From: Candidatus Bathyarchaeota archaeon
GTDB lineage: Archaea > Thermoproteota > Bathyarchaeia > TCS64
Direction of reading: 5' to 3'
Assembly (NCBI GenBank): GCA_043826455.1
Contig: JBDRQD010000002.1
Location: 26,181 to 90,180, forward strand
DNA: 64,000 nt
This document shows, piece by piece, positions 829 to 62,346 of this stretch (position 1 is its first letter; each line of letters begins with the position of its first letter). The position numbers were made by a program, and so were the translations under genes. Under the pieces are notes generated by a model, which saw only the letters and a program-made list of their open reading frames with translations, was not told the origin of the DNA and ran no database searches.

Positions 829-1497
829 ATGGCTTTGTCAGGCGGGGTCTTGGCTGTGGTCTCTCACCCGGACGACGAGACCTTCGGGTGCGGAGGGACC
901 CTGGCCCTCCACGCGTCCATGGGCGTCCCAGTGAGCGTCCTTTGCCTATCCTGCAATCCACCGGGTAGACGTGGGGAGATCATGGGGGCAGCCGAGGAGC
1001 TGGGCGTCCCCGAGCCCGTGGTCCTCGATGACCTGAGCATCGCGCAGACCCCGGGCCTCATCAGGCGGGTGGCTGACCACATAGTGGCCGCTAAGCCCAA
1101 AGTTGTGTTGACTCACGTCCCCTTCGACTATCACCGTGAGCACAGGGCGACCTACGAGGTGGTGAAGGAGGCCGTGGAGTGGGCGGCCCACACCACTACC
1201 TACGATGAGCCCTGCTTGGTGGAGCGGCTTCTGCTGATGGAGGTGAACACGCTCATACCTAGCCCCCACGTACTGGTGGACGTGTCGGAGGCCATGGACG
1301 CGAAGAGGCGGGCCACCAAGCGGTACACGTCCCAGCTGGCCAAGTTCACATGGGGCTACTATGAGAGGTTCAACGAGAAGAAGGCCGAGCTCCGCGGCGT
1401 CCAGGGCGGCTGCTCCTACGCCGAGGCTTTCCAGGAGGAGCCCCTGGCCAGGAGCGGCCCCTTCTACCCGGTGAAGAGCGTCAGGAGCCTCCTCTGA
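829..1497 (+). CDS. bshB: PIG-L/LmbE family deacetylase, probable GlcNAc-malate deacetylase
   Basis: HPDDE and HxxH (HREH) motifs, YAEAF tail; lies in the bshC/bshA cluster; start trimmed to ATG 829. Confidence 0.75.
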   Translation: MALSGGVLAVVSHPDDETFGCGGTLALHASMGVPVSVLCLSCNPPGRRGEIMGAAEELGVPEPVVLDDLSIAQTPGLIRRVADHIVAAKPKVVLTHVPFDYHREHRATYEVVKEAVEWAAHTTTYDEPCLVERLLLMEVNTLIPSPHVLVDVSEAMDAKRRATKRYTSQLAKFTWGYYERFNEKKAELRGVQGGCSYAEAFQEEPLARSGPFYPVKSVRSLL

Positions 1498-1544
1498 GCC
1501 TCAAGGTTTAAACCGGCTCCGCGCCGTCTTTTCTGGGAGGAAAC

Positions 1545-2492
1545 TTGAATCTCTACGGGCTCAAGGTCATAGACTTCCACAGCCACTTCCCCGTCCAGAG
1601 GGGCGGCGGAGGGGGAGGCTACTGGCAGCGGGTGGTCGAGAAGTACGGGGAGGAGCGGGCCACCATCATCATCCAGAACAGCCGAAGGTACAGGGACGAC
1701 TGGAGGCGGATGTGGGGCTTCGAGGCTCCGGAGGAGGGGACCCACAGCGACGAGGAGCAGGCGGAGCGCTGGGTGGCTGACCTGGACGCCAAGGGCGTGG
1801 AGAGGGTGAACTTCGTCACCGGAGGCGGCAACGACAACCTGGTCAAGGTTGTGGCCATGCACCCCGACAGGTTCACTGGGTTCGCCCACCACGACCCCTT
1901 CAGCGAGGACGCGGCCGGTGAACTGGAGCGGGCCGTGAAGGATCTGGGCCTAAGAGGCTACAAGCTGATATCGTCGAGCCTGACTCAGCCGGTGGACGAC
2001 AAGTCGCTTTACCCCCTTTGGGAGGCGGCTGAGAGGCTGAAGGTGCCCGTGCTCATCCACTTCGGCGTCCTTGGGGGAGGAGGGGGCCCCTCCAGGGACC
2101 TGAGGAACATGGATCCGCTGACTCTGTGGGAGGTGGCCGCCAGTTTCCCGACGCTAAACTTCGTGGTACCCCACTTCGGGGCCTGTTACCTCCGGGAACT
2201 CCTTCAGCTGTGCTGGAGCTGCCCCAACGTGCTGATGGACACCTCGGGGAGCAACCAGTGGACCAGGTGGATGCCATACAGGCTGACCCTGGAGGACGTA
2301 TTCAGGAAGGCCATAGAGACGGTTGGCCCAGACAGGATCGTTTTCGGCACCGACTCCAGCTACTTCCCCAGGGGCTTTGCCCAGGAGTACCTGAGGGAGC
2401 AGCTGATGATATGCCGCAGCATCGGCCTGGAGCAGGGCACGGTTGAGAAGATATTCAGCGGGAACGCGGCCCGGCTGCTCAGGCTCTCTTGA
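1545..2492 (+). CDS. Amidohydrolase family protein (Amidohydro_2-like)
   Basis: DFHSH, PVLIHFG, VPHFG, FGTDS motifs. Confidence 0.88.
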   Translation: MNLYGLKVIDFHSHFPVQRGGGGGGYWQRVVEKYGEERATIIIQNSRRYRDDWRRMWGFEAPEEGTHSDEEQAERWVADLDAKGVERVNFVTGGGNDNLVKVVAMHPDRFTGFAHHDPFSEDAAGELERAVKDLGLRGYKLISSSLTQPVDDKSLYPLWEAAERLKVPVLIHFGVLGGGGGPSRDLRNMDPLTLWEVAASFPTLNFVVPHFGACYLRELLQLCWSCPNVLMDTSGSNQWTRWMPYRLTLEDVFRKAIETVGPDRIVFGTDSSYFPRGFAQEYLREQLMICRSIGLEQGTVEKIFSGNAARLLRLS

Positions 2493-2537
2493 AAGGTTTT
2501 TATGAGCTCCCTCTGATGTGCATCCTATAAGTGGGGC

Positions 2538-4262
2538 ATGCACTTGGAGAACACTGCGCCGGCGCACCTGATCTACAGCGACTACGTGGAGAAGGGATTG
2601 AGGGCGGAGCTGGCCCAGGCTCTTTGGGGGCAGATACCGTCCATCATGGGTGACGCCTACGAGGCATTACCCAGGATTCGCTCAAAGTACGAGGCCTCCG
2701 CGGAGATCGAGGGCTTCAAGAAGGCTCTGAAGAACGAGATGAGGTCCATGGGGCTCCTCACGGGCCGGGTGGAGGCGAGCATCGACCGCTTGGACCGTGG
2801 CGTCGTGGAGACGGGCCAGCAGCCCATGTGCTTGGGGGGTCCCAGCCTGATCCTGAACAAGTTGGCGTACGCCCACAGCCTATGCGGCATGGGGGACCAC
2901 GGCTACGTCCCCCTATTCTATAACGCCGACTATGACGGTGTACAGGCCGAGCTGCTGAACATCCGGCTGCCTAGTCCCTCCTCGCATGGTTTGCTGCTTT
3001 CTTACCCGTCTGAGCTGGGTGACGAGGGTGTGCCCATCCGCCTGCTCCATAACCCGTCTGAGGACTGGTTTAGAAAGACTGTTGAGAAGATCGAAGGCAA
3101 CGTCAAGGGGATCATGAAGGGGGTGAACCAGGATGATCAGGAGAGGGTGGCTCAGAGGCTGAGCCACGCCCTGACCATCATCAGGGGCGCCTACTTCAGC
3201 ACTGGCAATGTGTCGGACTGGGCCGCCAAGACCCTGGGGATCATCATCAATTTGGAGGCCGACATGGGTGTGCCCGTGGTCTCCCCCAGCAAACCTGAGC
3301 TCAGGCCCTTCTTCCAGGATGGGTACGAGTTCCTTCTCTCGGAGCCCACCCGCAGCCGCTTCGTGGAGGCATCCAACAGAGCCGCTGAGCTGGTGGAGGG
3401 TGCCGGGTACAGGGCGCAGATAGGGTTGCGGGGCCGGGACTACGTCCCCTTCTTCCTGGAATGTATGACGCCGGGCTGCAGGCGGAGCCGCGTCGAGCTG
3501 AAGTACGACGCTGGTGTGGTTAAGGGGAAGTGCCCCAAGTGTGGGGAGGAGTACGAGTTCAGCTTCAACCCTGGCAGCCCCGACCTCACCGACATCATCG
3601 ACTGGATATCACCTAGAGTGGACTCTAGGCAGATCATAGTGGACTCTGTAATGCCCGTGCTGGCCCACGTGGGGGGCCCCGGTGAGACCAGCTACTACGC
3701 TGAGGTGATCCCCGCGGCCAGCGAGCTGGGTGTACCGTTCCCTCAGTACCTGCGCTACACCAGGGTCTTCTATAACACGCCGTGGAACGAGGCCGCCGCT
3801 AAGGAGGTGGAGGCCCTGGGCCTCCCGATGATCCTTGGCGAGGCCCTCTTCGCCGCCCTCGGGAAGTGGGTTGAGGCGCGTAACTCAGAGAACGGGGCGG
3901 CGCTGGCTGAGGCTCACAGAGCCATCCGGGCTTCCATTGATGGGAGCTTCGGCGCCCTGGTGGGCGAGGCTGAGAGGCTTCAGGGGGAGATCGAGGGCAT
4001 CAAGGGTCAGCTGGGCTCCGTGAAGGAGCGGGGGCCCCTCATCAGGGAGATGAGGGAGAAGCAGGGTAGACTCGGAGCCCTCGACCAGTACCTGTCCTGG
4101 GCCTACGGCAGGTTCAGCCCTGAGCGGTTCGGCCAGGAGGTCAGCTGGCACTGGCTGGACCTGGCCACGGTCACAGGCTTGGGGGACCTCATGGGGGTCT
4201 TCGACCGAGTCTATAACAGGTGGACGCCCAACAGCTCCGTCTACTTCGCCAACACGGGCTAG
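2538..4262 (+). CDS. bshC: Bacillithiol synthase BshC-like cysteine-adding enzyme
   Basis: ETGQQP, PLFYNADYD, GGPGETSYYA motifs, C-terminal coiled coil and ERFGQE (QER-like) segment, 574 aa; next to bshA. Confidence 0.82.
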   Translation: MHLENTAPAHLIYSDYVEKGLRAELAQALWGQIPSIMGDAYEALPRIRSKYEASAEIEGFKKALKNEMRSMGLLTGRVEASIDRLDRGVVETGQQPMCLGGPSLILNKLAYAHSLCGMGDHGYVPLFYNADYDGVQAELLNIRLPSPSSHGLLLSYPSELGDEGVPIRLLHNPSEDWFRKTVEKIEGNVKGIMKGVNQDDQERVAQRLSHALTIIRGAYFSTGNVSDWAAKTLGIIINLEADMGVPVVSPSKPELRPFFQDGYEFLLSEPTRSRFVEASNRAAELVEGAGYRAQIGLRGRDYVPFFLECMTPGCRRSRVELKYDAGVVKGKCPKCGEEYEFSFNPGSPDLTDIIDWISPRVDSRQIIVDSVMPVLAHVGGPGETSYYAEVIPAASELGVPFPQYLRYTRVFYNTPWNEAAAKEVEALGLPMILGEALFAALGKWVEARNSENGAALAEAHRAIRASIDGSFGALVGEAERLQGEIEGIKGQLGSVKERGPLIREMREKQGRLGALDQYLSWAYGRFSPERFGQEVSWHWLDLATVTGLGDLMGVFDRVYNRWTPNSSVYFANTG

Positions 4263-4852
4263 TCCCCGTGCCGCTTCCTGAGGGGCGGGGAGAGCCTCAC
4301 CATGGTGAGCATTCGCTCGAATATGTCCACCCACTCGGCCATATCGGCCTCCAGGGCCCTCGGGCTGAGTACGCCCTGGGGCTGCCCTCGGCCTATCTCC
4401 CTGGACGCCTTGGCCCTGTAGACTGTGACTAGTCTGTCTCCGAAGCGGCCCACCTCCCAGAAGTCCTCTGTGAGGAAGATCACCATGGGCACTCTGAGGG
4501 CGCCGAGGATGCGCAGCTCGTCCTGAAGCTCCTCCGACGCCTCCCGGTCAATGACCCTGAGGTGGACCCTTTCACCGGCTGTGTCAGCCAGCTTATTGAG
4601 CATGGGGCCCTGCCTGGCGCAGTCGCCGCACCAGATGCCCCCGTACATGAGGACGTTGAGCTCCCTGTCCCAGCCCTGGAGCCGCTCCTCCTGATCCGGT
4701 GTGAGTTCGGGCAGTCGCTCCGCGTTCTCCCTCCACCTTGCGGCTTTCTCCTGGTCGGACTCGTCGATGAAATCGTCGTAGGGCTTGGCCATGTTGAAGT
4801 GGCGCTTCCAGAACTCTGCCCTCTTGTCGTAGTAGGTCGGATTCTCGGTCAC
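4259..4852 (-). CDS. Thioredoxin family protein (WCGDC, Thioredoxin_9-like)
   Basis: GIWCGDC motif, cis-Pro region RVPMV. Confidence 0.85.
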   Translation of the reverse strand: MTENPTYYDKRAEFWKRHFNMAKPYDDFIDESDQEKAARWRENAERLPELTPDQEERLQGWDRELNVLMYGGIWCGDCARQGPMLNKLADTAGERVHLRVIDREASEELQDELRILGALRVPMVIFLTEDFWEVGRFGDRLVTVYRAKASREIGRGQPQGVLSPRALEADMAEWVDIFERMLTMVRLSPPLRKRHGD

Positions 4853-4885
4853 ATCGAATTGGATTGAGGCCGCACCATATATTGG

Positions 4886-5992
4886 TTAGCCTGTGACCCG
4901 CCTGTAGACGTCCAGGTACTGCTGCACAACCTTCTCGGTGCTGTAGCGCTCCACCACGGTCTCCCGTGCCGCGGCCCCCATCCTCTTCAGCTTCTCCCTG
5001 TCGCCGTGGAGCTCAAGTATCTTCTCTGCTATGTCCTCCGGGTGCTTGAGGGGCACCAGGAACCCGTTGCGGCCGTCCTCTACGATCTCCGGTATGCCGC
5101 CCACGTTGGTGGCTACCACCGGGAGACCTGTGCTCATGGCCTCCAGGATGGTGAGTGGGGCGCTCTCCGTCTCGCTGGGCAGCACCAGGGTGTCAACGCA
5201 TCTGAGGAGGTCCGGGACGTCGCTCCTGTAGCCGGTTAGAACCACGTTGCGGCGGAGGTCCATCTTGTCGATGAGGCGCTCCACCCTGTGCCTCTCGGGG
5301 CCGTCCCCGATGAGCATCAGCTTGGCCTTGGGCGCCGTCTTGGTGACCATGCACATGGCGTAGACCAGGTCGTCCACCCTCTTCACGGGCCTGAAGTTGC
5401 TTACGTGGGCAACGACGATGTCCCGCTCAGGCTGCTCCATGAGCTCGCAGGGGGCCGGTGAGTAGACCTCTGTGTCCACGAAGTTAGGTATCACCTTGAT
5501 CGCGTTGTTGATCCCCAAGTTGTTCTTGGCCTCGTCGGCCATGAACCTGGAGACGGCTGTCACGGCGTCGGCCTGCTCCACGCTGAAGGTGTTCACAGGC
5601 TCGTAGCTTGGGTCGCTTCCCAAGATGGTGACATCGCTGCCGTGCAGCGTCACCACGTAGGGCTTCCCTGTGAGGCCCCTGCTCAGGTAGGCGGCGGTCG
5701 CGTGAGGGATGCTGTAGTGGACGTGGAGGAGGTCTAGGCCACGCTTCACGGTGACGCGGCTCATCTCGCTGCCCAGGGCGATGGTGTAGGGAGGGTACTT
5801 GAAGAGGGGGTACTCTAGGACGCTCACCAGGTGAACGTACACGTTCTCCGGGTCCACCCCCTGGATGGCCACAGGCCGCTCATATGTGATAAAGTGGGCC
5901 TCGTGGCCCCTCTTGGCGTACTCGACGCCCAGCCTTGTGGCCAGGATGCCGCTGCCCCCCACCGTGGGGTAACATGTTATGCCTATCCTCAA
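4886..5992 (-). CDS. bshA: N-acetyl-alpha-D-glucosaminyl L-malate synthase
   Basis: MRIGITCYPTVGGSG, YPLFKYPPY, HVHYSIPHA, TLHGSD, HVSNFRPVKR: near-diagnostic BshA signatures. Confidence 0.95.
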   Translation of the reverse strand: MRIGITCYPTVGGSGILATRLGVEYAKRGHEAHFITYERPVAIQGVDPENVYVHLVSVLEYPLFKYPPYTIALGSEMSRVTVKRGLDLLHVHYSIPHATAAYLSRGLTGKPYVVTLHGSDVTILGSDPSYEPVNTFSVEQADAVTAVSRFMADEAKNNLGINNAIKVIPNFVDTEVYSPAPCELMEQPERDIVVAHVSNFRPVKRVDDLVYAMCMVTKTAPKAKLMLIGDGPERHRVERLIDKMDLRRNVVLTGYRSDVPDLLRCVDTLVLPSETESAPLTILEAMSTGLPVVATNVGGIPEIVEDGRNGFLVPLKHPEDIAEKILELHGDREKLKRMGAAARETVVERYSTEKVVQQYLDVYRRVTG

Positions 5993-6050
5993 GACGGGTC
6001 ACCGTAATGCTATACTGACTAGAAAGAAAGGATGGGATAAAAAGGTGGGG

Positions 6051-6524
6051 TTAGGTGCCCTTCATGCGCTTCTCGACGCCCAGGATGGCGGCGATCTGGC
6101 CCTCGTGGTGGATGATCTCGCTGATGGCTAACATCAGGTACTTCTCCTTGGGCTGGACACCGTAGAACCAGTCCAGGGGCTCGGCCAGGTCCTTGTCCTT
6201 GAGCCTGTTGAGGGTCTTGATCAGGTTCTCCTTGCCGACCTTGATGTCCCCCATGATCTTGTCTAGGGAGTAGCTGGTGTTGCCCACGTAGTCCTTGGGC
6301 CACCCTTTGGGGGTGTAATCCTTGTCTCCCTTGACAATCTTGGGGATGAAGGCGTGGAGCTCGCTGGACAGGTGGGTCAGTATCCACCGTATGGTGTTGG
6401 CCTGGGGGCAGCTCTTCCAGTCAAGCTGCTCAGGCTTCAGGTCCTTTGTGGCTCGTTCTAGGCGTTCGAAGCCTAGCATCGCGAAGCCCTTCAAAGAGTC
6501 AGTCTTCTTGGTCATGTTAATCAC
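6051..6524 (-). CDS. DinB/YfiT superfamily protein (S-transferase-like)
   Basis: NTIRWILTHL and EIIHHEGQI motifs. Confidence 0.85.
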   Translation of the reverse strand: MINMTKKTDSLKGFAMLGFERLERATKDLKPEQLDWKSCPQANTIRWILTHLSSELHAFIPKIVKGDKDYTPKGWPKDYVGNTSYSLDKIMGDIKVGKENLIKTLNRLKDKDLAEPLDWFYGVQPKEKYLMLAISEIIHHEGQIAAILGVEKRMKGT

Positions 6525-6595
6525 GTTAAAACTGGGTACAACCTAGTTGGCTTGTACCGGTAATAATACTTTTGATCCGAAGAAAAAAAGGGGAT

Positions 6596-7075
6596 TTACT
6601 TGAGGAAGCCGGGGTCCTTCTCCTTGAGGCGCTTCACTGTGCCCCTGATGTAGGCGATCTGGCCCCTGTGATGGTACAGCTCACCTATGTAGGCGAATAT
6701 CCCCGTCTTCCGCTTCTGCTTGCCTCCCCAGAGGGGTATCTCCTCCTCCAGCTGCTCGTCCTTGAGCTTGGCGAGGCCCTCAACGGCGGCCTTCTTACCG
6801 GCCTTGATGTCCTTCATCAGCTTCTCCAGGCTGTAGGCCTGGTCGCGGTAGTCCTCTGGCCACCCCTTGGGGCTCCAGTTGGGGTCCGCCTTGACGATGC
6901 GGGGGATGCTCATGTTCACGATCCTGCTCAGGTGGTTCAGGTTCCACTGGATACTGTTGGACTCCGACGTGAGCTTGTATGTGAACTCCTTCTCGCCCAG
7001 GTTCTCGGCGTGCCTGTCCAGGCTGTCGATGACGTACCCGAGCTGCTCTGCAAGTATTGACGTTTTGTCTCCCAT
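6596..7075 (-). CDS. DinB/YfiT superfamily protein, paralogue of the adjacent gene
   Basis: NSIQWNLNHL, ELYHHRGQI; shares PKGWPxDY..YSLxK.M.DIK with 6051-6524. Confidence 0.85.
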   Translation of the reverse strand: MGDKTSILAEQLGYVIDSLDRHAENLGEKEFTYKLTSESNSIQWNLNHLSRIVNMSIPRIVKADPNWSPKGWPEDYRDQAYSLEKLMKDIKAGKKAAVEGLAKLKDEQLEEEIPLWGGKQKRKTGIFAYIGELYHHRGQIAYIRGTVKRLKEKDPGFLK

Positions 7076-8641: not shown

Positions 8642-9478
8642 TTAGGGCCTGATGGGCGCCTGCACCTCGGTCATGATCTCGTCAGGGGCCACCTTGTTGG
8701 GGTCGTTGAGGTACAGGTCCCTCATGGGGCCGGCGATCTCCAGGCTCTTCTCCGAGACGTAGCCGTGGAGCCTCTGGTACGCCTGCCCTATGGTCTCGTA
8801 GCTGCCTCTGTGGACGAGGCTCACCACCCTGCAGGGCTCCAGGTTCCTGACCTCCACGGCGGGGTCCTCCACCACCAGCTTCCCCGTGACGGGGACGGCC
8901 ACCTCTACGTCGGCGCCCTCCTCCTTGTACTCCTCGTCATGGTAGATGGTCATCACCGGGCCCACAATCTTCACGTAGTTTCGCTGGTTCTCGGGGGCGT
9001 ATAGCACCCTCATGAGGTCGCCTATCAGCCTCCCAATGGTCTCGTCGTAGCTGCCGGTCTCCCTCTTGCTGAGGACACGGAGCCCGGGGACGTCCTTCAC
9101 CACGGGGTCGGACATGGTCACTTTAAACATCTCCTCCTTCTGGTTTCCTCTGAGCAACGACACGACCCGCTGGAGCCTGGTGAGCTCCCTCTCGGCGTCA
9201 CCCAGGCGCAAGCTGAGGAGCTTATCCTGGGCGTCTCCGTCTCCCCTGTCCTCAGCCTCGAAGTATGCCGCCATCTCCTCGACGCTGAACCCCAGGTCGG
9301 ATAGCTGCCTGATCTTGACGCCCCTCTGAATCTGGGCGCCCGTGTAGTACCTGTAGCCCGTGAAGGGGTCCTTGGCGCCGGGCACCAGGAGCCCCTTGGC
9401 GTCGTAGTAGCGGAGGGCCTTCTGGCTGAGGCGGGTGACCACGCTGAACCTGCCGATGGATATCTGGTCGACCGTCAT
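8642..9478 (-). CDS. MerR family regulator with GyrI-like effector domain (BmrR-like)
   Basis: ISIGRFS..LSQKALRYYD..GYRYY; C-terminal H.GSYE..YLNDP..TEVQAP. Confidence 0.92.
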   Translation of the reverse strand: MTVDQISIGRFSVVTRLSQKALRYYDAKGLLVPGAKDPFTGYRYYTGAQIQRGVKIRQLSDLGFSVEEMAAYFEAEDRGDGDAQDKLLSLRLGDAERELTRLQRVVSLLRGNQKEEMFKVTMSDPVVKDVPGLRVLSKRETGSYDETIGRLIGDLMRVLYAPENQRNYVKIVGPVMTIYHDEEYKEEGADVEVAVPVTGKLVVEDPAVEVRNLEPCRVVSLVHRGSYETIGQAYQRLHGYVSEKSLEIAGPMRDLYLNDPNKVAPDEIMTEVQAPIRP

Positions 9479-9682: not shown

Positions 9683-10834
9683 TTGTTCAAGGCGCGTTTC
9701 TGGGTGAGGCTGTTGTTGGCGGTCTCCCTGTCATTAGCCGCCACGGCTCCAGCCGCCCTGTGCTCCTCTGGGCCGAGCTCACGGTACGGGTGCCGGTTGG
9801 TCTACGACTCTGTGAACGAGAGGCTCATGATGTTCGGAGGCACCTACGAGGGGACGTCGCCTCAGGTCTATGACGACACGTGGGCCTTCGACTGGGACAC
9901 CGAGTCGTGGAGGCTTCTGGAGGTTGAGCCCCACCCGCCACTGCGAATGGACTACGGAATTGTGTACGTCCCGGAGCTTGAGGGCTTCATCCTCTTCGGG
10001 GGGTGGAACAAGGGAGGTTGGCTGGGGGACACGTGGCTCTACGACTGCGCCTCCCAGACTTGGACTGAGCTTCACCCCGCCGCGGCGCCCGAGGCCAGGA
10101 CCAGCATGGGGTTCTGCTGCGACGAGGCGAATGGCGTCCTAGTGCTTTACGGTGGTTACACGGAAGCTCTACCCGACATGGGGGACACGTGGCTCTACGA
10201 CTACTCCACAAACACGTGGACGGAGGCCGCGCCGGAGGCCAGCCCACCGGCCCTGTACGGGTGCGAGATGATCTATGACCCATCCACCCAGGCCGTGCTC
10301 ATGTTCGGGGGCCACTACTACGAGAATGACAGGGACTTCTTCATAAGGAGCGTGTGGGAGTACGATGTGGCTGCTAACACGTGGACTGATCGGCAGACGC
10401 AGAGCGGACCCTCTGAGAGGTACTGGCAGAACACGGCGCATGATAGCCAGGACGGCACCGTGATAGTCTTCGGGGGGAGGCGCCTCGGGAGCCAGTACGA
10501 CGACACCTGGATATATAACCCAGGCGACGACAGCTGGACGAGGCTCGACGTGGCTCGCCGCCCCCAGGCCCGATTCCAGTCAGCCTTCGCCTACGACCCG
10601 GTGCGTAACGCGGCTGTGCTGTTCGGCGGCTTCACCTTCGAGAATCGTCAGAACTTCGGAGACACCTGGATACTTGACTTATCCCAGGAGAGCCCAGACT
10701 GGAGGCAGGTGGGCGAAGGGACACAGCCTGAGAGCGCACCTTCCTCGGGTATAGACGGCTTCCCCGCCGAGACCATCTTTCTGGGGATGCTTGCATTTCC
10801 TCTGCACGCTTACTTCAGGAGACGAATGTCATGA
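9683..10834 (+). CDS. Secreted Kelch-repeat beta-propeller with C-terminal anchor
   Basis: Signal peptide, six FGG..DTW.YD..W repeats, tail GIDGFP-hydrophobic-RRR. Confidence 0.9.
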   Translation: MFKARFWVRLLLAVSLSLAATAPAALCSSGPSSRYGCRLVYDSVNERLMMFGGTYEGTSPQVYDDTWAFDWDTESWRLLEVEPHPPLRMDYGIVYVPELEGFILFGGWNKGGWLGDTWLYDCASQTWTELHPAAAPEARTSMGFCCDEANGVLVLYGGYTEALPDMGDTWLYDYSTNTWTEAAPEASPPALYGCEMIYDPSTQAVLMFGGHYYENDRDFFIRSVWEYDVAANTWTDRQTQSGPSERYWQNTAHDSQDGTVIVFGGRRLGSQYDDTWIYNPGDDSWTRLDVARRPQARFQSAFAYDPVRNAAVLFGGFTFENRQNFGDTWILDLSQESPDWRQVGEGTQPESAPSSGIDGFPAETIFLGMLAFPLHAYFRRRMS

Positions 10835-12111
10835 AATCTGAGACCTCATCACTGTCTTTTAAAAAAAGTTTCATGCACGGTGCGCTTCTGCTTTGTATCA
10901 TCCTTCAAACATCAGCACAGCTGCCGTCAACGCTCGCAACAGACTCGAACCCCTCGGAGAGGTACGGTGCAGCCATGGCATACGACGAGGCGAACGGGAG
11001 GCTCATACTCTTCGGGGGCAGCGAATGGGACGACACCCCCACATTCTACGACGACACGTGGGCCTATAACTACAGCTCCAACGAGTGGGTGGAGCTAAGC
11101 CCCGCGGTTCGGCCTCCCCCCAGGTTCAACCCCGGGGTAGCGTACATCCCGGACAGGCAGGCCATCCTCATCTTCGGCGGGTACAAGCCCCCCGAGCGTA
11201 ACCTAGGCGATACCTGGCTGTTCGACGTGAAGACGGACACTTGGCGAGAGCTGGAGCCCTCGAACAGCCCCACGCCGCGGAGCAACGTGGGCATGGCATA
11301 CGACACCAAGAACGGGAAGGTGATCCTCTTCGGGGGCAGCAGCAACTCCGAGTATCCTACATCAGACACGTGGGCCTACGATTTCGAGGCGAACACCTGG
11401 ACGGAGATGCATCCGGCGGCCTTCCCCAAGCCCCAGTACGGCGTCGGTATGGTTTACGACTCCCTGAACGAGCGCATCCTGCTCCTGGAGGGCCACTGGG
11501 TAACCAGGGAGAGCGGCGCGGTGAGGGACGGCTACGACGGCGGACTCTATACGTACGACTATGCCGCAGACACCTGGACGAAGATAGAGTGCTCGACACC
11601 GCCCGGGCGGTACTGGTACTCGACCGCGTACGACAACGACCTTGGGCGGATGATAGTGTTCGGCGGCATCAGGTGGATCGGGGGATACGGGAACATGTAC
11701 GACGAGACATGGGTCTACGATTCTGAGACGAATACATGGTCCAAATCCATTGAGAAGGGTCCCGAGAAGAGGTACATATCGGGGATGGCCTACGACCAGG
11801 GCGGCGGGGTGACCGTGCTCTTCGGCGGCGCAGTTGTCGTAGGTGATGCGCCGGGGGGAGGCGACCTGCGGGAATACTACTCGGACACCTGGGCCCTCAA
11901 CGCCACACTCGGGTGGAGCAGGCTCCTCGAGTCCGCGGCCCCAGTTGAGCCGGCAGAGGCGGAGGAGCCCGAGGCGGACATGGGTATCCCGGCGTTCCCT
12001 GTTGCCTCGTTATCAATCGGCCTCGGCGTGGCGCTCCTGTACCTGAAATGGAAGAGGCTTTCAAAAGCCGCATGGGATGTCTCCCCCGGGGGAGACTCCC
12101 AGCATATATAG
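10831..12111 (+). CDS. Secreted Kelch-repeat beta-propeller with C-terminal anchor
   Basis: Signal-like N-terminus, Kelch repeats, acidic/Pro linker, GIPAFP-TM-KWKR tail. Confidence 0.9.
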   Translation: MKSETSSLSFKKSFMHGALLLCIILQTSAQLPSTLATDSNPSERYGAAMAYDEANGRLILFGGSEWDDTPTFYDDTWAYNYSSNEWVELSPAVRPPPRFNPGVAYIPDRQAILIFGGYKPPERNLGDTWLFDVKTDTWRELEPSNSPTPRSNVGMAYDTKNGKVILFGGSSNSEYPTSDTWAYDFEANTWTEMHPAAFPKPQYGVGMVYDSLNERILLLEGHWVTRESGAVRDGYDGGLYTYDYAADTWTKIECSTPPGRYWYSTAYDNDLGRMIVFGGIRWIGGYGNMYDETWVYDSETNTWSKSIEKGPEKRYISGMAYDQGGGVTVLFGGAVVVGDAPGGGDLREYYSDTWALNATLGWSRLLESAAPVEPAEAEEPEADMGIPAFPVASLSIGLGVALLYLKWKRLSKAAWDVSPGGDSQHI

Positions 12112-13686: not shown

Positions 13687-14523
13687 ATGAGCATCCTCAG
13701 AGAGAAGACGCAGCGCCTCATAGAGGACACCGCGGAGGAGTACCCTGCAGTCATGGGGCTGCACTCCGTGAGCCTCACCGACCCTGACGACGAGCTGTCG
13801 CTGAACGCCGACGAGGTGTTCCCCACGGCCAGCATCATCAAGGTGCCCGTGCTCCTAGAGTTCTACAGGCAGGCCGAGGAGGGCGCCCTGGACCCGGGCG
13901 AGGTCAGAGCCCTCAAGGAGGAAGACAAGGTGGGGGGCAGTGGCGTCCTCCAGCATCTCACCGTCGGCTCCACCGTGCTGACGCTGGAGGACTACGCCCG
14001 GCTGATGATCAACCTGAGCGACAACACAGCCACCAACGTGGTCATCGACCAGGTGGGCCTGGACAACGTCAACGGGCTCCTCCAGGGCCTCGGCCTCGAC
14101 GCGACCAGGCTGGCGAGGAAGATGCAGGTCAAGGGCCTTGACCCTGACAGGGTGGAGAACCTGTCAACGCCCAGGGAGCTGACAGGGCTCATGGAGGCGA
14201 TCCACCGGGGCGAGGGCCTGAGCCCGGGCGTCTGCGAGAAGACGCTGGTCATCCTCAGTCTCCACAAGCCCGGGGTGATCAGGGACGCCGTGCAGAATGG
14301 GGTGGATGTGGCGGACAAGAGCGGGTGGATGGGTGGCGTGGAGTGCGACACAGGCATCGTCTACACGTCCAAGCCCTACGCGGTCACAGTCATGGCCAAG
14401 AACATCCCCGCCTGGGACTTGGGCGGCCTAGAGGCCAAGGAGGTCCTCAGGGAGCTGGTCTCAACTGTCCACGACTACTACCTGAACGTGGGGACGGCCA
14501 CCAGGCACGGCCGCAGGCGCTAG
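13687..14523 (+). CDS. Class A beta-lactamase-like serine hydrolase
   Basis: ASIIK (SxxK), SDN, DKSG motifs; no signal peptide. Confidence 0.9.
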   Translation: MSILREKTQRLIEDTAEEYPAVMGLHSVSLTDPDDELSLNADEVFPTASIIKVPVLLEFYRQAEEGALDPGEVRALKEEDKVGGSGVLQHLTVGSTVLTLEDYARLMINLSDNTATNVVIDQVGLDNVNGLLQGLGLDATRLARKMQVKGLDPDRVENLSTPRELTGLMEAIHRGEGLSPGVCEKTLVILSLHKPGVIRDAVQNGVDVADKSGWMGGVECDTGIVYTSKPYAVTVMAKNIPAWDLGGLEAKEVLRELVSTVHDYYLNVGTATRHGRRR

Positions 14524-14716
14524 AAGACTCAAACGTCTAAGGGGCCTCTTCCATTGGCTCTTCGGGCCCCGTTACCCAGTTTTCCTTCGTTTTATGGGCG
14601 GATGCAGCTAAAATGTGATTGAACCCAGTCAAGAAGTGGAACAGAGTACCAAAACCCGGATATTTAACCTCGTGTATAGGAGTCGATCAAGAGGAGTAGT
14701 TACACTTTGGAAGGCG

Positions 14717-16108
14717 ATGACGATGATGTTCAAGGAAAGAGTAGCGGAACTGGAGAACTACATCTTCAAGCGGATGGGCGACGCCGAGATAATAGGCCTC
14801 AGCATCGCCGCAGTGAAGGACGGCCAAGTAGCCTACAGTAACGGTTTCGGTTTCAGGGATTTTGATAAGGGCAGCAGCGCGAACCCGGAGACCACGTACT
14901 GCATAGGCAGCGTGACCAAGAGCTTCACGGCCCTGGCGGCGCTGCAGCTCCAGGAGAGGGGCCTCCTCAGCTTAGACGACCCCATAACCAGGTACGTAAA
15001 CTTCAAGGCCAAGCCCATGGGGGAGCCCATACGCGTGAAGCACCTCCTGAGCCACAGCAGCGGCCTCCCCTCACTGGGATACGCCGAGGCCACCCTGGGG
15101 GCGGTGACCGAGACCTATGACAGCTGGTTCCCCATAAGCAGCCCCAAGGACCTCCTGATCTTCATGAGCGGGGCCGACGAGTGGGCCCTGGCCAGACCGG
15201 GAGAACGCCACGCGTACCTGAACGAGGGCTACATCCTGCTGGGCAGCATAATCGAGGAGGCCTCGGGACGCGACTACGTGTCCTATGTGACTGAGAACAT
15301 CCTCCGCCCCCTGGGCATGGACAGGAGCACCTTCATGGAGGAGGACGTGAAGAGGGACAGGAACGTGGCCACCCCCTACGTCACCAACAAGGACGGCGTC
15401 AAGGTGGCCACCAGGTACCCCTACGGGCAGATGCTGGCCGACGGCGGCCTCATGAGCAACGCCGTGGATATGGCAAGGTTCACCGAGATGCTCCTTAACC
15501 TGGGTGAACTTGATGGCGTCCAGGTGGCGCGGCCCGATACAGTGCAGGCTATGATGGAGCCCAAGATACGCACGGTGGAGGAGCCTGTGCCGGGGGCGGG
15601 CCACCACAGCTACGGGTACGGGATGCGCATAAAGGAGGAGTTCCTAGGCCACAACCTGGTGTACCATAGCGGCAGCGTCTACGGTTCCAGCGCCTACATG
15701 TGCCTGGTGCCCGATGAGGACGTGGCCGTGGTCATACTGGCAAACGGAGGCTACTTCCTGGAGGACATGGGGGAGTACGCCATGGCCCTGCTACTCGGCA
15801 GGGAGCCCGGTGAGGTGCCCTACATGAAGAGGACTGGCGCCCTGGACAGGCTGACCGGCACCTACAGGACCTTCAAGGACACCTCCAGCTACGAGGTGAC
15901 CCGGAGCAGCGGCATCCTCCAGCTGGAGATGACGTGGGGCAGGAGAACCTACACGGTGCCCCTCATCCCTGTGGACCTTGAGGGGGAGCCCAAGCTGTTC
16001 AGGATGTGCGGGGTGGAGGCCACGACGCCGGTGGAGTTCTTCCAGAGGGGCGGCGCCACCTACATGGTGTACGACCGCACCATGGCCAAGAAGGCCAACG
16101 GCTGTTAG
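14717..16108 (+). CDS. Serine hydrolase, AmpC/CubicO (Pab87-like) D-peptidase family
   Basis: SVTK, LLSHSSG, YLN, HSG motifs plus C-terminal beta domain; start uncertain (14717-14726). Confidence 0.88.
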   Translation: MTMMFKERVAELENYIFKRMGDAEIIGLSIAAVKDGQVAYSNGFGFRDFDKGSSANPETTYCIGSVTKSFTALAALQLQERGLLSLDDPITRYVNFKAKPMGEPIRVKHLLSHSSGLPSLGYAEATLGAVTETYDSWFPISSPKDLLIFMSGADEWALARPGERHAYLNEGYILLGSIIEEASGRDYVSYVTENILRPLGMDRSTFMEEDVKRDRNVATPYVTNKDGVKVATRYPYGQMLADGGLMSNAVDMARFTEMLLNLGELDGVQVARPDTVQAMMEPKIRTVEEPVPGAGHHSYGYGMRIKEEFLGHNLVYHSGSVYGSSAYMCLVPDEDVAVVILANGGYFLEDMGEYAMALLLGREPGEVPYMKRTGALDRLTGTYRTFKDTSSYEVTRSSGILQLEMTWGRRTYTVPLIPVDLEGEPKLFRMCGVEATTPVEFFQRGGATYMVYDRTMAKKANGC

Positions 16109-16242
16109 CCTGCCCCATTTTAGCCCTTTTTCTAATCCCCGTCTTTCATCCAGTGAATAAGCGAAACGAGAAATCAACACGAGCCACGTGATGTGGAAAC
16201 TTAAAAATGCGCCCTGAACCCCTAAAGGTATCAGTGTTCTAA

Positions 16243-17346
16243 ATGGGCGCCACGAGGAAGAGTAGGGCACGGGACCTGGGCGTACCCTTCGACGGGGAGC
16301 CGGGTACCTTCAACGCCATAACCGACGTGAAGGGAGTTCTGGTCGGGCACTCGACCATCATCTCAGGGGAGGGTAAGATGGTGGTCGGCAAGGGCCCAGT
16401 GAGGACGGGCGTCACCGCGGTCCTGCCCCGCGGCAGGTGCTATGATCCAGTCTTCGCAGGCTGGTCGTGCCTCAACGGGAACGGTGAGATGACCGGCACC
16501 ACCTGGGTGGAGGAGTCCGGTTTCCTAGAGGGCCCCGTCATGATCACCAACACCCACAGCGTGGGGGTCGTCCACGACGCCGTCATCGAGTGGATGAACC
16601 AGAGGAAGGCGGAGAACCCCACCATAGGCGAGGTTCACTGGTCGCTGCCCGTGGTGGCTGAGACCTACGACGGGCGCCTCAACGACATCAACGGGTTCCA
16701 CGTGAAGAAGAAGCATGCCTTCCAGGCCCTTGAGTCGGCTGCCTCGGGCCCCGTCGAGGAGGGAAACGTGGGCGGAGGCACAGGGATGATATGCCACCAG
16801 TTCAAGGGCGGCATCGGCACGGCCTCGAGGCGGCTGAGTGAAGATGAGGGAGGGTACACGGTGGGCGTCCTGGTTCAGGCCAATTATGGGCTGAGGCCGC
16901 TCCTCACGGTGGCCGGCGTCCCTGTGGGCCGCGAGACACCGGACCTGATGCCCGCCATCAGTGGCGAGGGCGGCTCCATCATCGTGGTGGTGGCCACTGA
17001 CGCGCCCCTGCTGCCCCACCAGCTGAAGCGGCTGGCTAGGAGGGCGCCCCTCGGGATAGCCCGTGTGGGCGGCGTCGGCGGCGACAGCTCCGGGGACATC
17101 TTCATCGCCTTCTCCACGGCCAACCCCGGGGTTCACGGGAAGGGCAAGGTGTCTGAGCTCAGGATGCTGTCCAACGACCTCAACACTGGGCTGTTCCTGG
17201 CCACGGTCCAGGCCACGGAGGAGGCTATAGTCAACGCCCTGGTGGCCGCCGAGACCATGACAGGCGTCAACGGCAACACGGTCTACGCATTACCCCACGA
17301 CAGGCTGAAGGACGCCCTGAGGAAGTACAATCGGTTGGCCGAGTGA
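16243..17346 (+). CDS. dmpA: P1/S58 family L-aminopeptidase/D-amidase (DmpA-like)
   Basis: NAITDV.GV.VGH, PVVAETYDG.LND, G-S autocleavage site GGSIIVV, SGDIFIAFST. Confidence 0.92.
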   Translation: MGATRKSRARDLGVPFDGEPGTFNAITDVKGVLVGHSTIISGEGKMVVGKGPVRTGVTAVLPRGRCYDPVFAGWSCLNGNGEMTGTTWVEESGFLEGPVMITNTHSVGVVHDAVIEWMNQRKAENPTIGEVHWSLPVVAETYDGRLNDINGFHVKKKHAFQALESAASGPVEEGNVGGGTGMICHQFKGGIGTASRRLSEDEGGYTVGVLVQANYGLRPLLTVAGVPVGRETPDLMPAISGEGGSIIVVVATDAPLLPHQLKRLARRAPLGIARVGGVGGDSSGDIFIAFSTANPGVHGKGKVSELRMLSNDLNTGLFLATVQATEEAIVNALVAAETMTGVNGNTVYALPHDRLKDALRKYNRLAE

Positions 17347-17406
17347 ACCGCGCGAGCGCCGCTCGGCCAAGGAACCCCATCGGGCACTGGCCCCGACGCG
17401 GCTCAC
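17343..17406 (+). other. GC-rich branched stem-loop directly after dmpA
   Basis: GTGAACCGCG pairs with CGCGGCTCAC (9/10), enclosing CGAGC/GCTCG and TCGGG/CCCGA hairpins. Confidence 0.35.
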
Positions 17407-17489
17407 CAACATTCTACCTATGCACAATGCGTGTCGCCGGGAGCCGTGCACCGGGGACCACAACCAATATGGAGCCCCGCTTCCTGTGA

Positions 17490-18491
17490 GTGATCGAGAT
17501 GTCCACCGATCACATATGGGACAGGATCAAGGACAAGAGTAACGTCGTAGGCTACTCCAAGAGGCTGAGAAGACGCATAAGGGACGGCGTTGAGATGGAG
17601 GAGGAGGTCATAAGGGTCTACGTCTCCAGGAAGCTCCACGCCTCAGCCCTGGACCTAAAGGACCTTATACCCGGGGAGATCGACGGTGTCCCCACGGACG
17701 TAGTCGAGATAGGGGACATGAGAGCCCTGAACATCTACCCTATGGCCCACGTGACGAGGGTTCGCCCACTCGTCGCGGGGGTAAGCATAGGTAACTGGGC
17801 GATAACGGCGGGGACCTTGGGCTGGTTCTTCAGGGATGGTAGAGGAAGGGATATGCTGGGCAGCAATGCCCACGTCTTCGCAGAAGACCCCCTGAGCCAA
17901 TCGTCAGGCGAGACCCGCATAGTGCAGCCGGGCAGGGCAGACGGGGGCATAGTCCCTGAGGACATGGTGGGCACGTATAACTGGCACCAGCCCCTCGCCG
18001 GGAGCGGCTGCGCATTCTCCAACGCCATTGTGGGCCTGCTGAACGGCGCCAGCGCCCTCCTCGGTAGGAGAACCAGGTTCCATCTCAAACTTACCGACAG
18101 AGCCAGGATCGACTTCGCCGTCGCCGAGCCCACCGTCGATTACGAACTGAAGCTGCTAACAGCCGAGGAGTGGGACGACTTCGTGGGCCTCGGGTTCGCC
18201 GGGAGCTCACAGGCCAGCTTCTTCTGCAAAGCGGAGCACATAGAGGCGGCAGGCTGGAAACCCGTGGAGAAGACCATCCAGGCCGTGACCATCGGGGACA
18301 CCATTCACAAGATCGGGCGCACCTCCGAGTACACATCGGGCCAGATCCTGGACGACTCGGCCTACGGCAGGGTCAGCTACGGCGGCCTGAGCCTGGTGGA
18401 GTTTGACGACGTCATCCTTACGACCCCCATGTTGGAGGCGGGGGACAGCGGGGACTCGGCCTGGAAAACCATGATTAGGAATGCAGAATAA
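17490..18491 (+). CDS. Trypsin-like (Nal1-like S1) serine protease
   Basis: GTLG, SNAHV, IDFAV, GRTS..T.G, GDSG motifs; N-terminal prodomain with GVPTDVVE. Confidence 0.8.
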   Translation: MIEMSTDHIWDRIKDKSNVVGYSKRLRRRIRDGVEMEEEVIRVYVSRKLHASALDLKDLIPGEIDGVPTDVVEIGDMRALNIYPMAHVTRVRPLVAGVSIGNWAITAGTLGWFFRDGRGRDMLGSNAHVFAEDPLSQSSGETRIVQPGRADGGIVPEDMVGTYNWHQPLAGSGCAFSNAIVGLLNGASALLGRRTRFHLKLTDRARIDFAVAEPTVDYELKLLTAEEWDDFVGLGFAGSSQASFFCKAEHIEAAGWKPVEKTIQAVTIGDTIHKIGRTSEYTSGQILDDSAYGRVSYGGLSLVEFDDVILTTPMLEAGDSGDSAWKTMIRNAE

Positions 18492-18640
18492 GTGAGGCGG
18501 TTTTCTGACAGCGTCAAGTTGGGGAAAAATTAGGCAGACTAGTAATCAGCTATTTTATTAAAATTAAAATGGTTCAGCAAATGCGCCACGTAATATGGTT
18601 AATCTTATTTTACCACCAGAGGATAAGAAGATGATTCATC

Positions 18641-20296
18641 ATGTTTGACACCCATACAGTTGAGAGCATTGAAAGATTTGTATCAGCCGAAATCACCTGT
18701 AGAGGCCACCCCGGCTCAAGCCTATCAATTATTGTAGATGGAAAAGTAGCGTGGGCGAAGGGGTTTGGCTACGCCGAAGTTGAAAAAAAAGAACCAGCCA
18801 AACCCGAGACAGTGTATAGATGCGCGTCGGTCACCAAACCCGTCATCACTGTAGGTCTCCTCCAGCTCATGGAGAAGGATAAGTTTCATCTCGACGACGA
18901 AGCGAACAGCTACCTGGACGTAAAGATCCAGGACGTTAAAGGAGAAGAGCCGACTATACGGGACCTCCTCACCCATCGCAGCGGCATGCCCACACGGGTG
19001 CCACCAATATACATGTTTGACGAGGACCCCCTAACAATGCGAGGCTACATAGAGTCCGCCGCACGAGCTGTAAGGCCGAGGGGGGAAGCGTGGGCCTACT
19101 GTAACACTGCTTACATGATCGCCGGCTACATGATAGACCTCTTCTCCGGGAAGACCTACGACAAATACGTAACCGAAAACGTGCTCAGGCCGCTGGAAAT
19201 GAGAACAAGCGCCTTCACCCTGACCCCAGAGATCAGAGCAAAACTAACCCAAGGCTACAAACGGGCCGGAGGCCCCGATAAACCGCTGACACCTGTCACC
19301 CCCTACATACTAGGCACCATGCCTGAGGACCCAGCAGGGAGCCTCTACTCCACTGTACTCGATCTAGCAAACTTCGTCATAATGAACATGAATGGAGGCA
19401 CATACAAGGGCAGACGGATACTAAGAGAAGAGACCATTGAGGAGATGCACCGGCTACAGGCCCCCACGGGAAACTCTAGAAGCGGCATGGGCCTCACCTG
19501 GATCCACAGCATCCACGACGGCCACGTCATGCTTAACCACACAGGCGGGTTACCCGACTTCACCAACAACGTGTGCTTCTACCCGGAGGAGAAGGTGGGG
19601 GTGTGCTGGCTCAGCAACCTTCAGGACGGCTCGGGCTGGAGGCCGCCAGCCCCCACAGTACTCAGGATCGCCCACGGAGACAAGCCGGCTTTCGGTGCAG
19701 GTCTCCAGACAGTACCCGAGAACTGGGACAATATCTGCGGCCTTTACGGCGACGAGACGCATCAGTTGGCTTTGGCGGTTCGGAACGGGTACCTAACCCT
19801 TGACAACAATGTGGTGCTGGAGAGGGTGGATGATACCCGTTACCGGGCTCGGGGGCCTTCAAACGACGGTTATGAAGTAACCATGGAGTATGGGAAGGAT
19901 GGAAAGACCAAGAGCATAAGCTGGGGAACCACGTATCTCGCAAGATACCTCCCTGAGGCACCGGAGATCGATGCGGACCTCGAGCTGAAAGGCACCTGGA
20001 GAGGCGAGTACCATGACTCATCGGGGTTCCACACACTGGAACTTACAGTCCAGGATGAGGACCACGGCTCCATCCGGGATCCTCAAGGGGAGACCATGGT
20101 TCTTGAAAATTTCAAAACTGCCGCCGGCAAGGTAGCAGGAGGTTTCCGGTATCAATTGCCGAAGGAGTATGCGCGATGGGGAACCAGCGACTATGCAGAT
20201 GTAAGCCTAGAGTTACGGGCTGTTGGAGGGGAGCTCAGAGGGGTCCTACGGTCTCGCGGTGGAGCGACATTGGTAACGCTAAATAAAGTCTCATAA
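18641..20296 (+). CDS. Serine hydrolase, beta-lactamase/AmpC family with C-terminal extension
   Basis: SVTK, LLTHRSG, YCN, HTG motifs. Confidence 0.88.
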   Translation: MFDTHTVESIERFVSAEITCRGHPGSSLSIIVDGKVAWAKGFGYAEVEKKEPAKPETVYRCASVTKPVITVGLLQLMEKDKFHLDDEANSYLDVKIQDVKGEEPTIRDLLTHRSGMPTRVPPIYMFDEDPLTMRGYIESAARAVRPRGEAWAYCNTAYMIAGYMIDLFSGKTYDKYVTENVLRPLEMRTSAFTLTPEIRAKLTQGYKRAGGPDKPLTPVTPYILGTMPEDPAGSLYSTVLDLANFVIMNMNGGTYKGRRILREETIEEMHRLQAPTGNSRSGMGLTWIHSIHDGHVMLNHTGGLPDFTNNVCFYPEEKVGVCWLSNLQDGSGWRPPAPTVLRIAHGDKPAFGAGLQTVPENWDNICGLYGDETHQLALAVRNGYLTLDNNVVLERVDDTRYRARGPSNDGYEVTMEYGKDGKTKSISWGTTYLARYLPEAPEIDADLELKGTWRGEYHDSSGFHTLELTVQDEDHGSIRDPQGETMVLENFKTAAGKVAGGFRYQLPKEYARWGTSDYADVSLELRAVGGELRGVLRSRGGATLVTLNKVS

Positions 20297-46070: not shown

Positions 46071-46592
46071 CTACATGCCCACGCCGGGTGTCCTGTACCG
46101 TTTCTCCCACTCGGCCCTCATGACGATGTCCCGGGGGTCCCTGAGGTGGTCGCTGCACACCACGCCGTCCAGGTGGTCGATCTCGTGCTGCAGCAGCTCG
46201 CTCATCCCGTCCCGGAACTCTTCCACGTGCTCGCCGCCCAGCTCATCAAGGAAGCGTACCCTGATGGCCTTGCTGCGGGGTATCTTGACGAAGAAGGCCG
46301 CCTCCAGGCTGAAGCAGCTGTCCCACACCTCGAAGGTCTCGGCACTAATCCACTCCACCACCGGGTTCACCAGGTAGAAGCTCCTCTCAGGCATCTGGAC
46401 ATAGACGACGCGCCTCCTGTACCCGATCTGGGGCGCAGCTATGCCACGGCCCATGCCATAGGTCTCCTGATGCCTTGTTAGGGTGTCCTTAAGGTCCAGG
46501 AGGATGGGTCTCAGCTCGTCGAGGTCCTCCACGGGCTCGGACCTCTCCCTCAGCCTCGGGTCGCCCAGGAGGACGGTGTCTCTCACCACCAT
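46071..46592 (-). CDS. def: Peptide deformylase family protein
   Basis: GIAAPQIG, DSCFS (EGCLS variant), QHEIDHLDG. Confidence 0.88.
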   Translation of the reverse strand: MVVRDTVLLGDPRLRERSEPVEDLDELRPILLDLKDTLTRHQETYGMGRGIAAPQIGYRRRVVYVQMPERSFYLVNPVVEWISAETFEVWDSCFSLEAAFFVKIPRSKAIRVRFLDELGGEHVEEFRDGMSELLQHEIDHLDGVVCSDHLRDPRDIVMRAEWEKRYRTPGVGM

Positions 46593-62301: not shown

Positions 62302-62346
62302 ACTACATAAATATGGTCTATTGAGAGTGAAAAAATATTGTGGGGG

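Follow-up and report, generated by a model that had tools for sequence, protein, structure and literature searches.

A candidate bacillithiol-type thiol gene cluster native to Bathyarchaeia

The closest described relatives of the gene cluster considered here are the bacterial bacillithiol (BSH) pathway, which rests on the enzymes BshA, BshB1 or BshB2, and BshC, and the corresponding genes of Asgard archaea. A 2020 review by Rawat and Maupin-Furlow describes the low-molecular-weight thiols that buffer redox stress in most uncultured archaea as undefined, and bacillithiol as measured in bacteria only (PMC7278568). The same review counts 39 archaeal InterPro matches each for BshA and BshC, mostly in Asgard archaea, and suggests that BSH production is possible in archaea (PMC7278568). 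BshC was itself first identified through co-occurrence with bshA (PMC5790435). NCBI records already name Bathyarchaeota and Asgard proteins BshA and BshC. Here, we analyze a stretch of 64,000 nucleotides, hereafter the window, from a Candidatus Bathyarchaeota archaeon (assembly GCA_043826455.1, contig JBDRQD010000002.1, positions 26,181 to 90,180), in which seven genes at 829-7075 make up a cluster of this type.

We conclude that the cluster is native to the archaeal lineage Bathyarchaeia. [quoted passage not shown] The genes form two converging rows, three on the plus strand and four on the minus strand, with the 3' end of the Thioredoxin_9 gene overlapping the BshC-like gene by 4 bases. They are listed below with their profile matches; GlcNAc stands for N-acetylglucosamine.

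829..1497, plus strand: PIG-L/LmbE-family deacetylase, a BshB-like candidate for GlcNAc-malate deacetylation (PF02585, 64.4 bits, cut-off 28.2)
1545..2492, plus strand: Amidohydro_2 protein with a COG2159-type metal hydrolase/decarboxylase fold (PF04909, 156 bits)
2538..4262, plus strand: archaeal-type BshC-like protein of 574 amino acids, candidate cysteine-adding enzyme (PF10079, 48.9 bits, cut-off 27)
3462..3542, plus strand: four-cysteine zinc-ribbon-like motif within the BshC-like protein (Cys309, Cys314, Cys332, Cys335)
4259..4852, minus strand: Thioredoxin_9 protein with WCGDC (Cys75/Cys78), candidate thiol-disulfide oxidoreductase (PF14595, 67.7 bits)
4886..5992, minus strand: BshA (TIGR03999, 413.5 bits, cut-off 273.7)
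6051..6524, minus strand: DinB_2 superfamily protein, candidate thiol S-transferase (PF12867, 46.1 bits, cut-off 24.8)
6596..7075, minus strand: second DinB_2 protein, candidate thiol S-transferase (PF12867, 41.7 bits; PF04978 MST, 28.2 bits, cut-off 27)

Pfam and NCBIfam profiles thus bear out the PIG-L, BshC-like, BshA, WCGDC thioredoxin and two DinB genes that a model, given the letters and their open reading frames without database searches (the sequence-only reading), had recognized at these positions. That reading made no mention of the Amidohydro_2 gene, though it is conserved in the cluster.

BshA is the firmest member of the set. Six glycosyltransferase family 4 (GT4) proteins of the genome match TIGR03999, and this is the sole one above the cut-off, its residues 1-366 covering profile positions 1-373 of 375 and hence the full length. 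It also aligns over the full length with solved BshA proteins, at 318 bits with 2JJM of Bacillus anthracis, 285.6 bits with 5D00 of Bacillus subtilis and 259 bits with 6N1X/6D9T. Because an NCBI equivalog cut-off is passed and the score to the solved B. anthracis enzyme reaches 318 bits, the identity is firm, and on sequence grounds 4886-5992 is unambiguously a bona fide BshA. The PIG-L protein is matched end to end by the solved BshB1 6P2T (E 5.4e-10), and it carries SHPDDE and DYHREH. These correspond to HPDD, near the N terminus, and DxHxxH, which we take to be the metal-binding and catalytic motifs of PIG-L proteins; by regular expression, HPDD occurs in 62 and DxHxxH in 43 of 63 PIG-L homologues from related loci.

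Assignment of 2538-4262 to the BshC family follows from its PF10079 match, its predicted fold and the conserved linkage of its gene to bshA. The PF10079 alignment is limited to residues 209-402, and this domain is the precomputed Pfam annotation on all 120 listed homologues. An AlphaFold2 model built from an alignment of 26 homologues has a mean predicted local distance difference test score (pLDDT) of 88.1 and a predicted template modeling score (pTM) of 0.89, and shows the BshC fold, a Rossmann-like domain followed by a long C-terminal helical part. When the model was searched with Foldseek, the top match was 4WBD, the BshC of B. subtilis, along the entire length (589 columns, E 6.6e-17, template modeling (TM) scores 0.66/0.70), the next being a class I lysyl-tRNA synthetase at a TM score of 0.33. 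The family profile recovers 4WBD from sequence as well (E 4.7e-5), aligning it in three collinear segments among which GQQ...GP and GPGE..Y are found, and the motifs GQQ...GGP...NK and GPGE..Y are common to the BshC-like protein and canonical BshC. An exhaustive search of 1.84 billion representatives returned 287 relatives at E <= 0.001; all 38 family members sampled, canonical and archaeal, match TIGR03998 at that threshold. The protein is truly related to BshC, though very distantly.

What sets this branch of the family apart is a group of cysteines. Cys309, Cys314, Cys332 and Cys335 are invariant in all 26 close Bathyarchaeia homologues, and the C-C...CxxC pattern recurs in 73 of 74 full-length homologues from Bathyarchaeia and Asgard loci. 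Among the 28 nearest full-length relatives in the sample of 38, Cys309 and Cys332 are kept in every one and Cys335 in 27, many having all four, whereas 9 of 10 canonical-type BshC proteins sampled lack the motif. Short beta strands are modeled at residues 305-342, and a zinc ribbon, with predicted metal binding, is the natural reading of the module. Since four cysteines would occupy every coordination site, we take the module to be structural and not substrate binding. A tree of 63 BshC rows rooted on 18 canonical sequences sets the 45 motif-bearing rows apart by a supported branch (98, starred). In this tree, made by a quick search, the 13 rows from Bathyarchaeia make up a single clade (100, starred) nested in a radiation whose other members are Asgard, its closest neighbors being Thor- and Ranarchaeia sequences (92, not starred).

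To follow the genes beyond the window, we used a scan of one genome per species with a 10-row alignment, and the loci described here are the best 80 of 137 confirmed matches. Fifty-five of them are close, at 46-92% BshC-like identity: 51 are labeled Bathyarchaeota or Bathyarchaeia, 1 "uncultured archaeon" and 3 bacterial. A further 24 loci at 33-37% identity come from Thorarchaeota (18), Promethearchaeota (3), Heimdallarchaeota (1) and records named "archaeon" (2). Of ten more distant clusters that were looked up, five have named members, all of them Asgard (Heimdall, Ranarchaeia, Hodarchaeales/Thor and Harpocratesius). With the window protein as query, the BshC-like gene was found in 21 of the 24 further genomes searched within the genus and in 0 of 16 from other families. 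A profile search of 301 genomes of the class, many of them incomplete, recovered it from 59 of 70 further genomes in the family, representing 9 of 12 sampled genera, and did not find it in the 230 genomes of 33 other families.

Gene order is well kept within the genus. Of 10 loci that belong to other species in the genus, 9 have all seven genes in the order of the window, at 52-79% BshC-like identity, and the tenth ends at a contig edge. Linkage across the wider set was counted where the BshC-like gene is preceded by at least 3 kb and followed by at least 4.5 kb, which leaves out 46 of 79 loci. BshA lies within 6 kb of the BshC-like gene in all 33 flanked loci (23/23 Bathyarchaeia, 10/10 Asgard), and a PIG-L gene lies beside it in 31 (21/23 and 10/10). 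With the window proteins as queries, the other members appear beside the BshC-like gene in Bathyarchaeia only: DinB in 19 of 23 loci, Amidohydro_2 in 17 and Thioredoxin_9 in 7, each in 0 of 10 Asgard loci. The BshA/PIG-L/BshC-like trio is likewise clustered in Thor-, Prometheo- and Heimdallarchaeota. Given the order preserved in 9 of 10 same-genus loci and the adjacency of BshA and PIG-L in flanked loci, the grouping is not due to chance. The closed 1.5-Mb Bathyarchaeota chromosome CP070640.1 holds two BshC-like/BshA pairs (L088 and L092), one of them with no PIG-L gene detected in the locus.

A BshA tree of 51 rows gives a compatible picture. Its 11 Bathyarchaeia rows (99, starred) join Thor/Prometheo and Ranarchaeia rows (19 rows; 95, starred), apart from a Heimdall group and from a group that includes Gemmatimonadetes; the tree is unrooted, without an outgroup and made by a quick search, 26 of its rows are unnamed, and bacteria are sampled in it only near the Heimdall query. 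Gene trees had been proposed as a check on the sequence-only reading, and both trees place Bathyarchaeia with Thor- and Ranarchaeia; the two genes therefore appear to travel together. They seem to have moved jointly between Asgard archaea and one family of Bathyarchaeia, in either direction. The patchy distribution, one Bathyarchaeia family plus Asgard archaea, combined with the congruent trees, points to a redox system that passed as a block from one archaeal phylum to another.

Could the contig instead be a bacterial contaminant of the bin, carrying an ordinary bacterial bsh locus? The genome (2.95 Mb in 81 contigs, 97.7% complete) does have an estimated contamination of 7.2%, informational marker genes are absent from the 90 kb of the contig that were examined, and copies of the Bathyarchaeia cluster at 65-92% identity stand on three short contigs labeled bacterial. 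Yet the tetranucleotide composition of the contig is that of the main bin, its distance of 0.0066 falling within the main cluster of the genome and beside the 0.0068 of the rRNA contig. The sole small-subunit (SSU) rRNA of the genome scores 1491.8 bits with the archaeal model against 1113.5 with the bacterial one. The family genomes that carry the gene include single-contig genomes, and the 51 close loci labeled Bathyarchaeota or Bathyarchaeia include the chromosomes CP070784.1 and CP070640.1; the close BshC-like homologues bear the NCBI name "Candidatus Bathyarchaeota archaeon." The next clade out is Asgard, with genes for a Ras-family GTPase and TFIIB near the cluster on a Thorarchaeota chromosome, and the bacterial-labeled contigs are just 2.0-8.0 kb long. 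A bacterial origin is thus contradicted by the data at hand, and we reject it as barely conceivable; the suspicion that the genome was archaeal, voiced from the letters alone, is borne out.

Two observations on binning stand beside this result. The three bacterial-labeled contigs (L042, L046 and L082), from Krumholzibacteriaceae and Desulfaltia bins, have the same gene order as the archaeal loci and are probably mis-binned archaeal contigs. Within the genome itself, contigs C5, C17, C25, C27, C30-C32, C40, C43, C44, C61 and C69 have a lower G+C content, 0.50-0.55, and lie farthest from the genome mean in tetranucleotide composition; they may account for the 7.2% estimate or be genomic islands, and the window contig is not among them.

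The remaining members of the cluster have family assignments. The Amidohydro_2 gene is a conserved, Bathyarchaeia-specific member. Its product matched no NCBIfam family, falls in generic Amidohydro_2 clusters only in a protein atlas, and has as its best solved relative the uncharacterized BB4693 (3IRS, E 4.3e-12). Because the gene sits between those for the deacetylase and the BshC-like protein, a modified product is possible. The best solved relative of the Thioredoxin_9 protein is the hypothetical protein PA1234 (1Z6N), and CxxC is kept in all 20 homologues, as WCGDC in 19 and WCPDC in 1. Both DinB proteins pass the DinB_2 cut-off of Pfam, which denotes superfamily membership only, and score well below the mycothiol transferase model NF047843 (29.7 bits for 6051..6524 and 41.3 for the other, against 170). 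The protein encoded at 6596..7075 is matched in its N-terminal half only by its best solved relatives, 8F5V (E 1e-5) and the mycothiol S-transferase 8FX9 (E 2e-5).

In the scheme we favor, BshA would join the GlcNAc of uridine diphosphate (UDP)-GlcNAc to L-malate, the PIG-L enzyme would take the acetyl group off GlcNAc-malate to leave glucosamine (GlcN)-malate, and the BshC-like enzyme would finish bacillithiol, or a near relative of it, by adding cysteine to the amine thus freed. Both DinB_2 proteins would attach the thiol to electrophiles, and the WCGDC Thioredoxin_9 would reduce mixed disulfides in place of the bacilliredoxins, which were not found in the genome. The Amidohydro_2 protein could act as a conjugate amidase or modify the aglycone. 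Family, fold, conserved linkage and archaeal origin are what the data show; each substrate, the product, the binding of zinc and the parts played by the DinB, Thioredoxin_9 and Amidohydro_2 proteins are inferred. The sequence-only reading had held that this organism makes and uses bacillithiol or a variant. The part of that statement that stands is a cluster that is real, archaeal and conserved, with BshA above its cut-off; the part that falters concerns the other two core enzymes, deacetylase and BshC-like protein, which lie outside the curated families, although the BshC-like label itself survives on PF10079, fold and linkage.

Several points weigh against a plain bacillithiol pathway. According to the 2020 review, no archaeon has been found to contain bacillithiol (PMC7278568). 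The deacetylase scores 74.6 bits against the 182.5 required for BshB1 (TIGR04001), and 61.1 against 195.25 for BshB2, so we file 829-1497 only as a PIG-L family deacetylase; an archaeal diacetylchitobiose deacetylase, 8BGN, matches it about as well as BshB1 does. The BshC-like protein reaches 51.4 bits with the BshC equivalog model TIGR03998, for which the cut-off is 265.8, and is 14% identical to 4WBD. Failure with BshC profiles, which the sequence-only reading had named as refuting it, has thus half come about. A six-frame search of the genome with the same model gave the BshC-like gene 39.8 bits and found no second, canonical BshC elsewhere. This cut-off is strict, since of the four named control genomes that match the model just two exceed it. 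Fold similarity does not fix the chemistry of the protein, because the canonical BshC reaction has never been reconstituted in vitro (PMC5790435). Known redox partners are also missing: in this genome, 97.7% complete, the bacilliredoxins BrxA/B (PF06491) and BrxC/YtxJ (TIGR04019) had 0 matches at E <= 0.01, the redoxin of the cluster belonging to another family (PF14595), and the best of 7 matches to YpdA/Bdr (TIGR04018) reached 52.1 bits against a cut-off of 339.9.

Two further explanations have to be set beside the bacillithiol scheme. The product may be a related but different thiol, made on the same scaffold of sugar, deacetylation and amino acid addition but differing in its aglycone, its amino acid or a later modification; examples would be a malyl part changed by the Amidohydro_2 protein, or another donor taken by the divergent BshC-like enzyme. 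We consider this unlikely on balance, though it is the most credible of the alternatives. It would account for two of three core enzymes falling far below equivalog cut-offs, for the long supported branch of the archaeal BshC clade with its own four-cysteine motif, and for the Amidohydro_2 gene standing between the deacetylase and BshC-like genes in 17 of 23 Bathyarchaeia loci. A natural BSH derivative, N-methyl-BSH, is reported in bacteria (PMC12719100). On the other side, the enzyme that chooses the aglycone, BshA, scores above the L-malate synthase equivalog cut-off in Bathyarchaeia as well as in Thorarchaeota, the Amidohydro_2 gene is in none of 10 Asgard loci and hence lies outside the common core, and the motifs common with canonical BshC are kept. 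A more tentative thought, to which we give slightly less weight, is that an archaeal, anciently diverged last bacillithiol enzyme with its zinc-ribbon-like four-cysteine module, shared by one Bathyarchaeia family and several Asgard lineages and working in Bathyarchaeia with the Amidohydro_2, Thioredoxin_9 and DinB proteins, might make and cycle a thiol other than plain bacillithiol, or use a different route of cysteine activation. If true, the archaeal BshC variant could reveal a missing co-substrate or partner, canonical BshC being unreconstituted.

The other explanation dispenses with a thiol altogether. The GT4, PIG-L and BshC-like proteins would act on some other GlcNAc molecule, possibly a compatible solute, a glycolipid anchor or chitin-derived sugars, and the DinB and thioredoxin genes would be unrelated neighbors. 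The resemblance of the PIG-L protein to diacetylchitobiose deacetylase, the chemistry of BshC that is unproven even in bacteria (PMC5790435), and the redox partners not found in the genome all leave room for it. We nevertheless regard it as improbable, since the BshA lies above a curated equivalog cut-off and the other five GT4 genes of the genome lie below, the trio stays linked in two archaeal phyla despite rearrangement, and thiol-related DinB_2 and CxxC genes have been recruited to the cluster repeatedly.

Upstream of the cluster lies a gene for the gamma subunit of pyruvate:ferredoxin oxidoreductase (98-742), with those for its partner subunits further upstream on the same contig, and downstream are a creatininase-family gene and a regulator. 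The latter, with a MerR helix-turn-helix and a GyrI-like domain (8642-9478, minus strand), is also near the thiol cluster in 4 of the 23 flanked Bathyarchaeia loci, and may regulate the cluster in response to electrophiles or drugs. Two tandem genes for Kelch-repeat beta-propellers (9683-10834 and 10831-12111, both plus strand) overlap by 4 bases and encode hydrophobic N- and C-terminal stretches; the first of them adjoins the thiol cluster in one closely related locus as well. Contigs from four RNA libraries, 88-99% alike, cover parts of the stretch, mostly 4161-7040; these are assembled contigs from relatives, the libraries may hold DNA, and neither they nor the uncovered parts, which are uninformative, speak for or against transcription. 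The whole stretch is present in one groundwater sequencing run, maybe its source, and all other runs hold small shares of it.

Elsewhere in the window, a beta-lactamase-fold and peptidase block at 13687-20296 combines a class A-like protein, a Pab87-type protein with octamerization domain PF13969, a peptidase S58 and another protein of PF00144, and suggests peptide or D-amino-acid scavenging. A peptide deformylase gene stands at 46071-46592 (minus strand; PF01327, 116.3 bits) in this archaeal genome. Two adjacent genes of the Pup-ligase family PF03136, best known from the actinobacterial Pup-proteasome system, lie at 55385-57022 and 57054-58430 (both minus strand; 163.7 and 239.1 bits). Toward the end of the window, at 60001-64000, the G+C content drops from about 0.61 to 0.43-0.50, and an open reading frame with an AbiEi-like antitoxin domain is found at 62920-63765; this part may be a mobile island.

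The finding overturns nothing. The genes had already been annotated in databases and pointed out in the literature, and novelty is modest, lower than the sequence-only reading had supposed in saying that bacillithiol is not commonly recognized as an archaeal thiol, since the NCBI names and the 2020 review precede it (PMC7278568). A search of full-text literature found no paper linking bacillithiol biosynthesis with Bathyarchaeia, and in one paper that names both the connection is incidental (PMC8261052); among papers that mention bacillithiol with Bathyarchaeia or Asgard archaea, the 2020 review alone appears to deal with archaeal bsh genes (PMC7278568). The same kind of search found nothing on the BshC cysteine motif or on the accessory genes. 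What the cluster provides is a concrete, clonable set of genes, from archaea abundant in sediment and groundwater, for testing archaeal bacillithiol production. The archaeal BshC clade, with 14% identity to B. subtilis BshC, the same fold and a new cysteine module, also offers an independent handle on an enzyme that has resisted reconstitution (PMC5790435).

Compared with the bacterial BshA/BshB1(B2)/BshC pathway of B. subtilis, B. anthracis, Staphylococcus aureus and Deinococcus, the archaeal cluster has counterparts of all three enzyme types, in the same logical succession, including a full-member BshA, a protein with the BshC fold and the GQQ and GPGE motifs, and a PIG-L-type deacetylase with the metal motif. 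DinB_2 genes accompany the archaeal cluster much as transferases of the BstA/YfiT type do in bacteria, YfiT and BstA being DinB_2 relatives. The differences are the distance from 4WBD and the four-cysteine motif of the BshC-like protein, the sub-cut-off BshB-like protein, the extra Amidohydro_2 and Thioredoxin_9 genes, and a genome without detected BrxA/B, YtxJ or YpdA. In B. subtilis, bshC lies apart from bshA-bshB1 (PMC5790435), whereas in the archaeon all genes share one convergent cluster.

Closer at hand are the Asgard bshA/PIG-L/BshC-like operons of Thor-, Prometheo- and Heimdallarchaeota, which contain the same archaeal BshC clade with its cysteine motif. The Thorarchaeota proteins score much as those of the window do (BshA 370.7 bits, passing the equivalog; PIG-L 74.5; BshC-like 56.3), but identity to the window is 33-37% for BshC-like and 43-47% for BshA, and the gene order differs, with PIG-L divergent from bshA-bshC. 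The mycothiol pathway of Actinomycetota, MshA/MshB/MshC, shares the succession of a GT4 enzyme, a PIG-L deacetylase and cysteine addition, and the nearest solved relatives of a DinB protein of the window include the mycothiol S-transferase 8FX9. Its models nonetheless fall far below their cut-offs in the window proteins (MshA 78.3 against 462.5 bits, MshB 26.6 against 224.35, and likewise the mycothiol transferase model), and while MshC is like cysteinyl-tRNA synthetase, the archaeal candidate for cysteine addition has instead the predicted fold of BshC.

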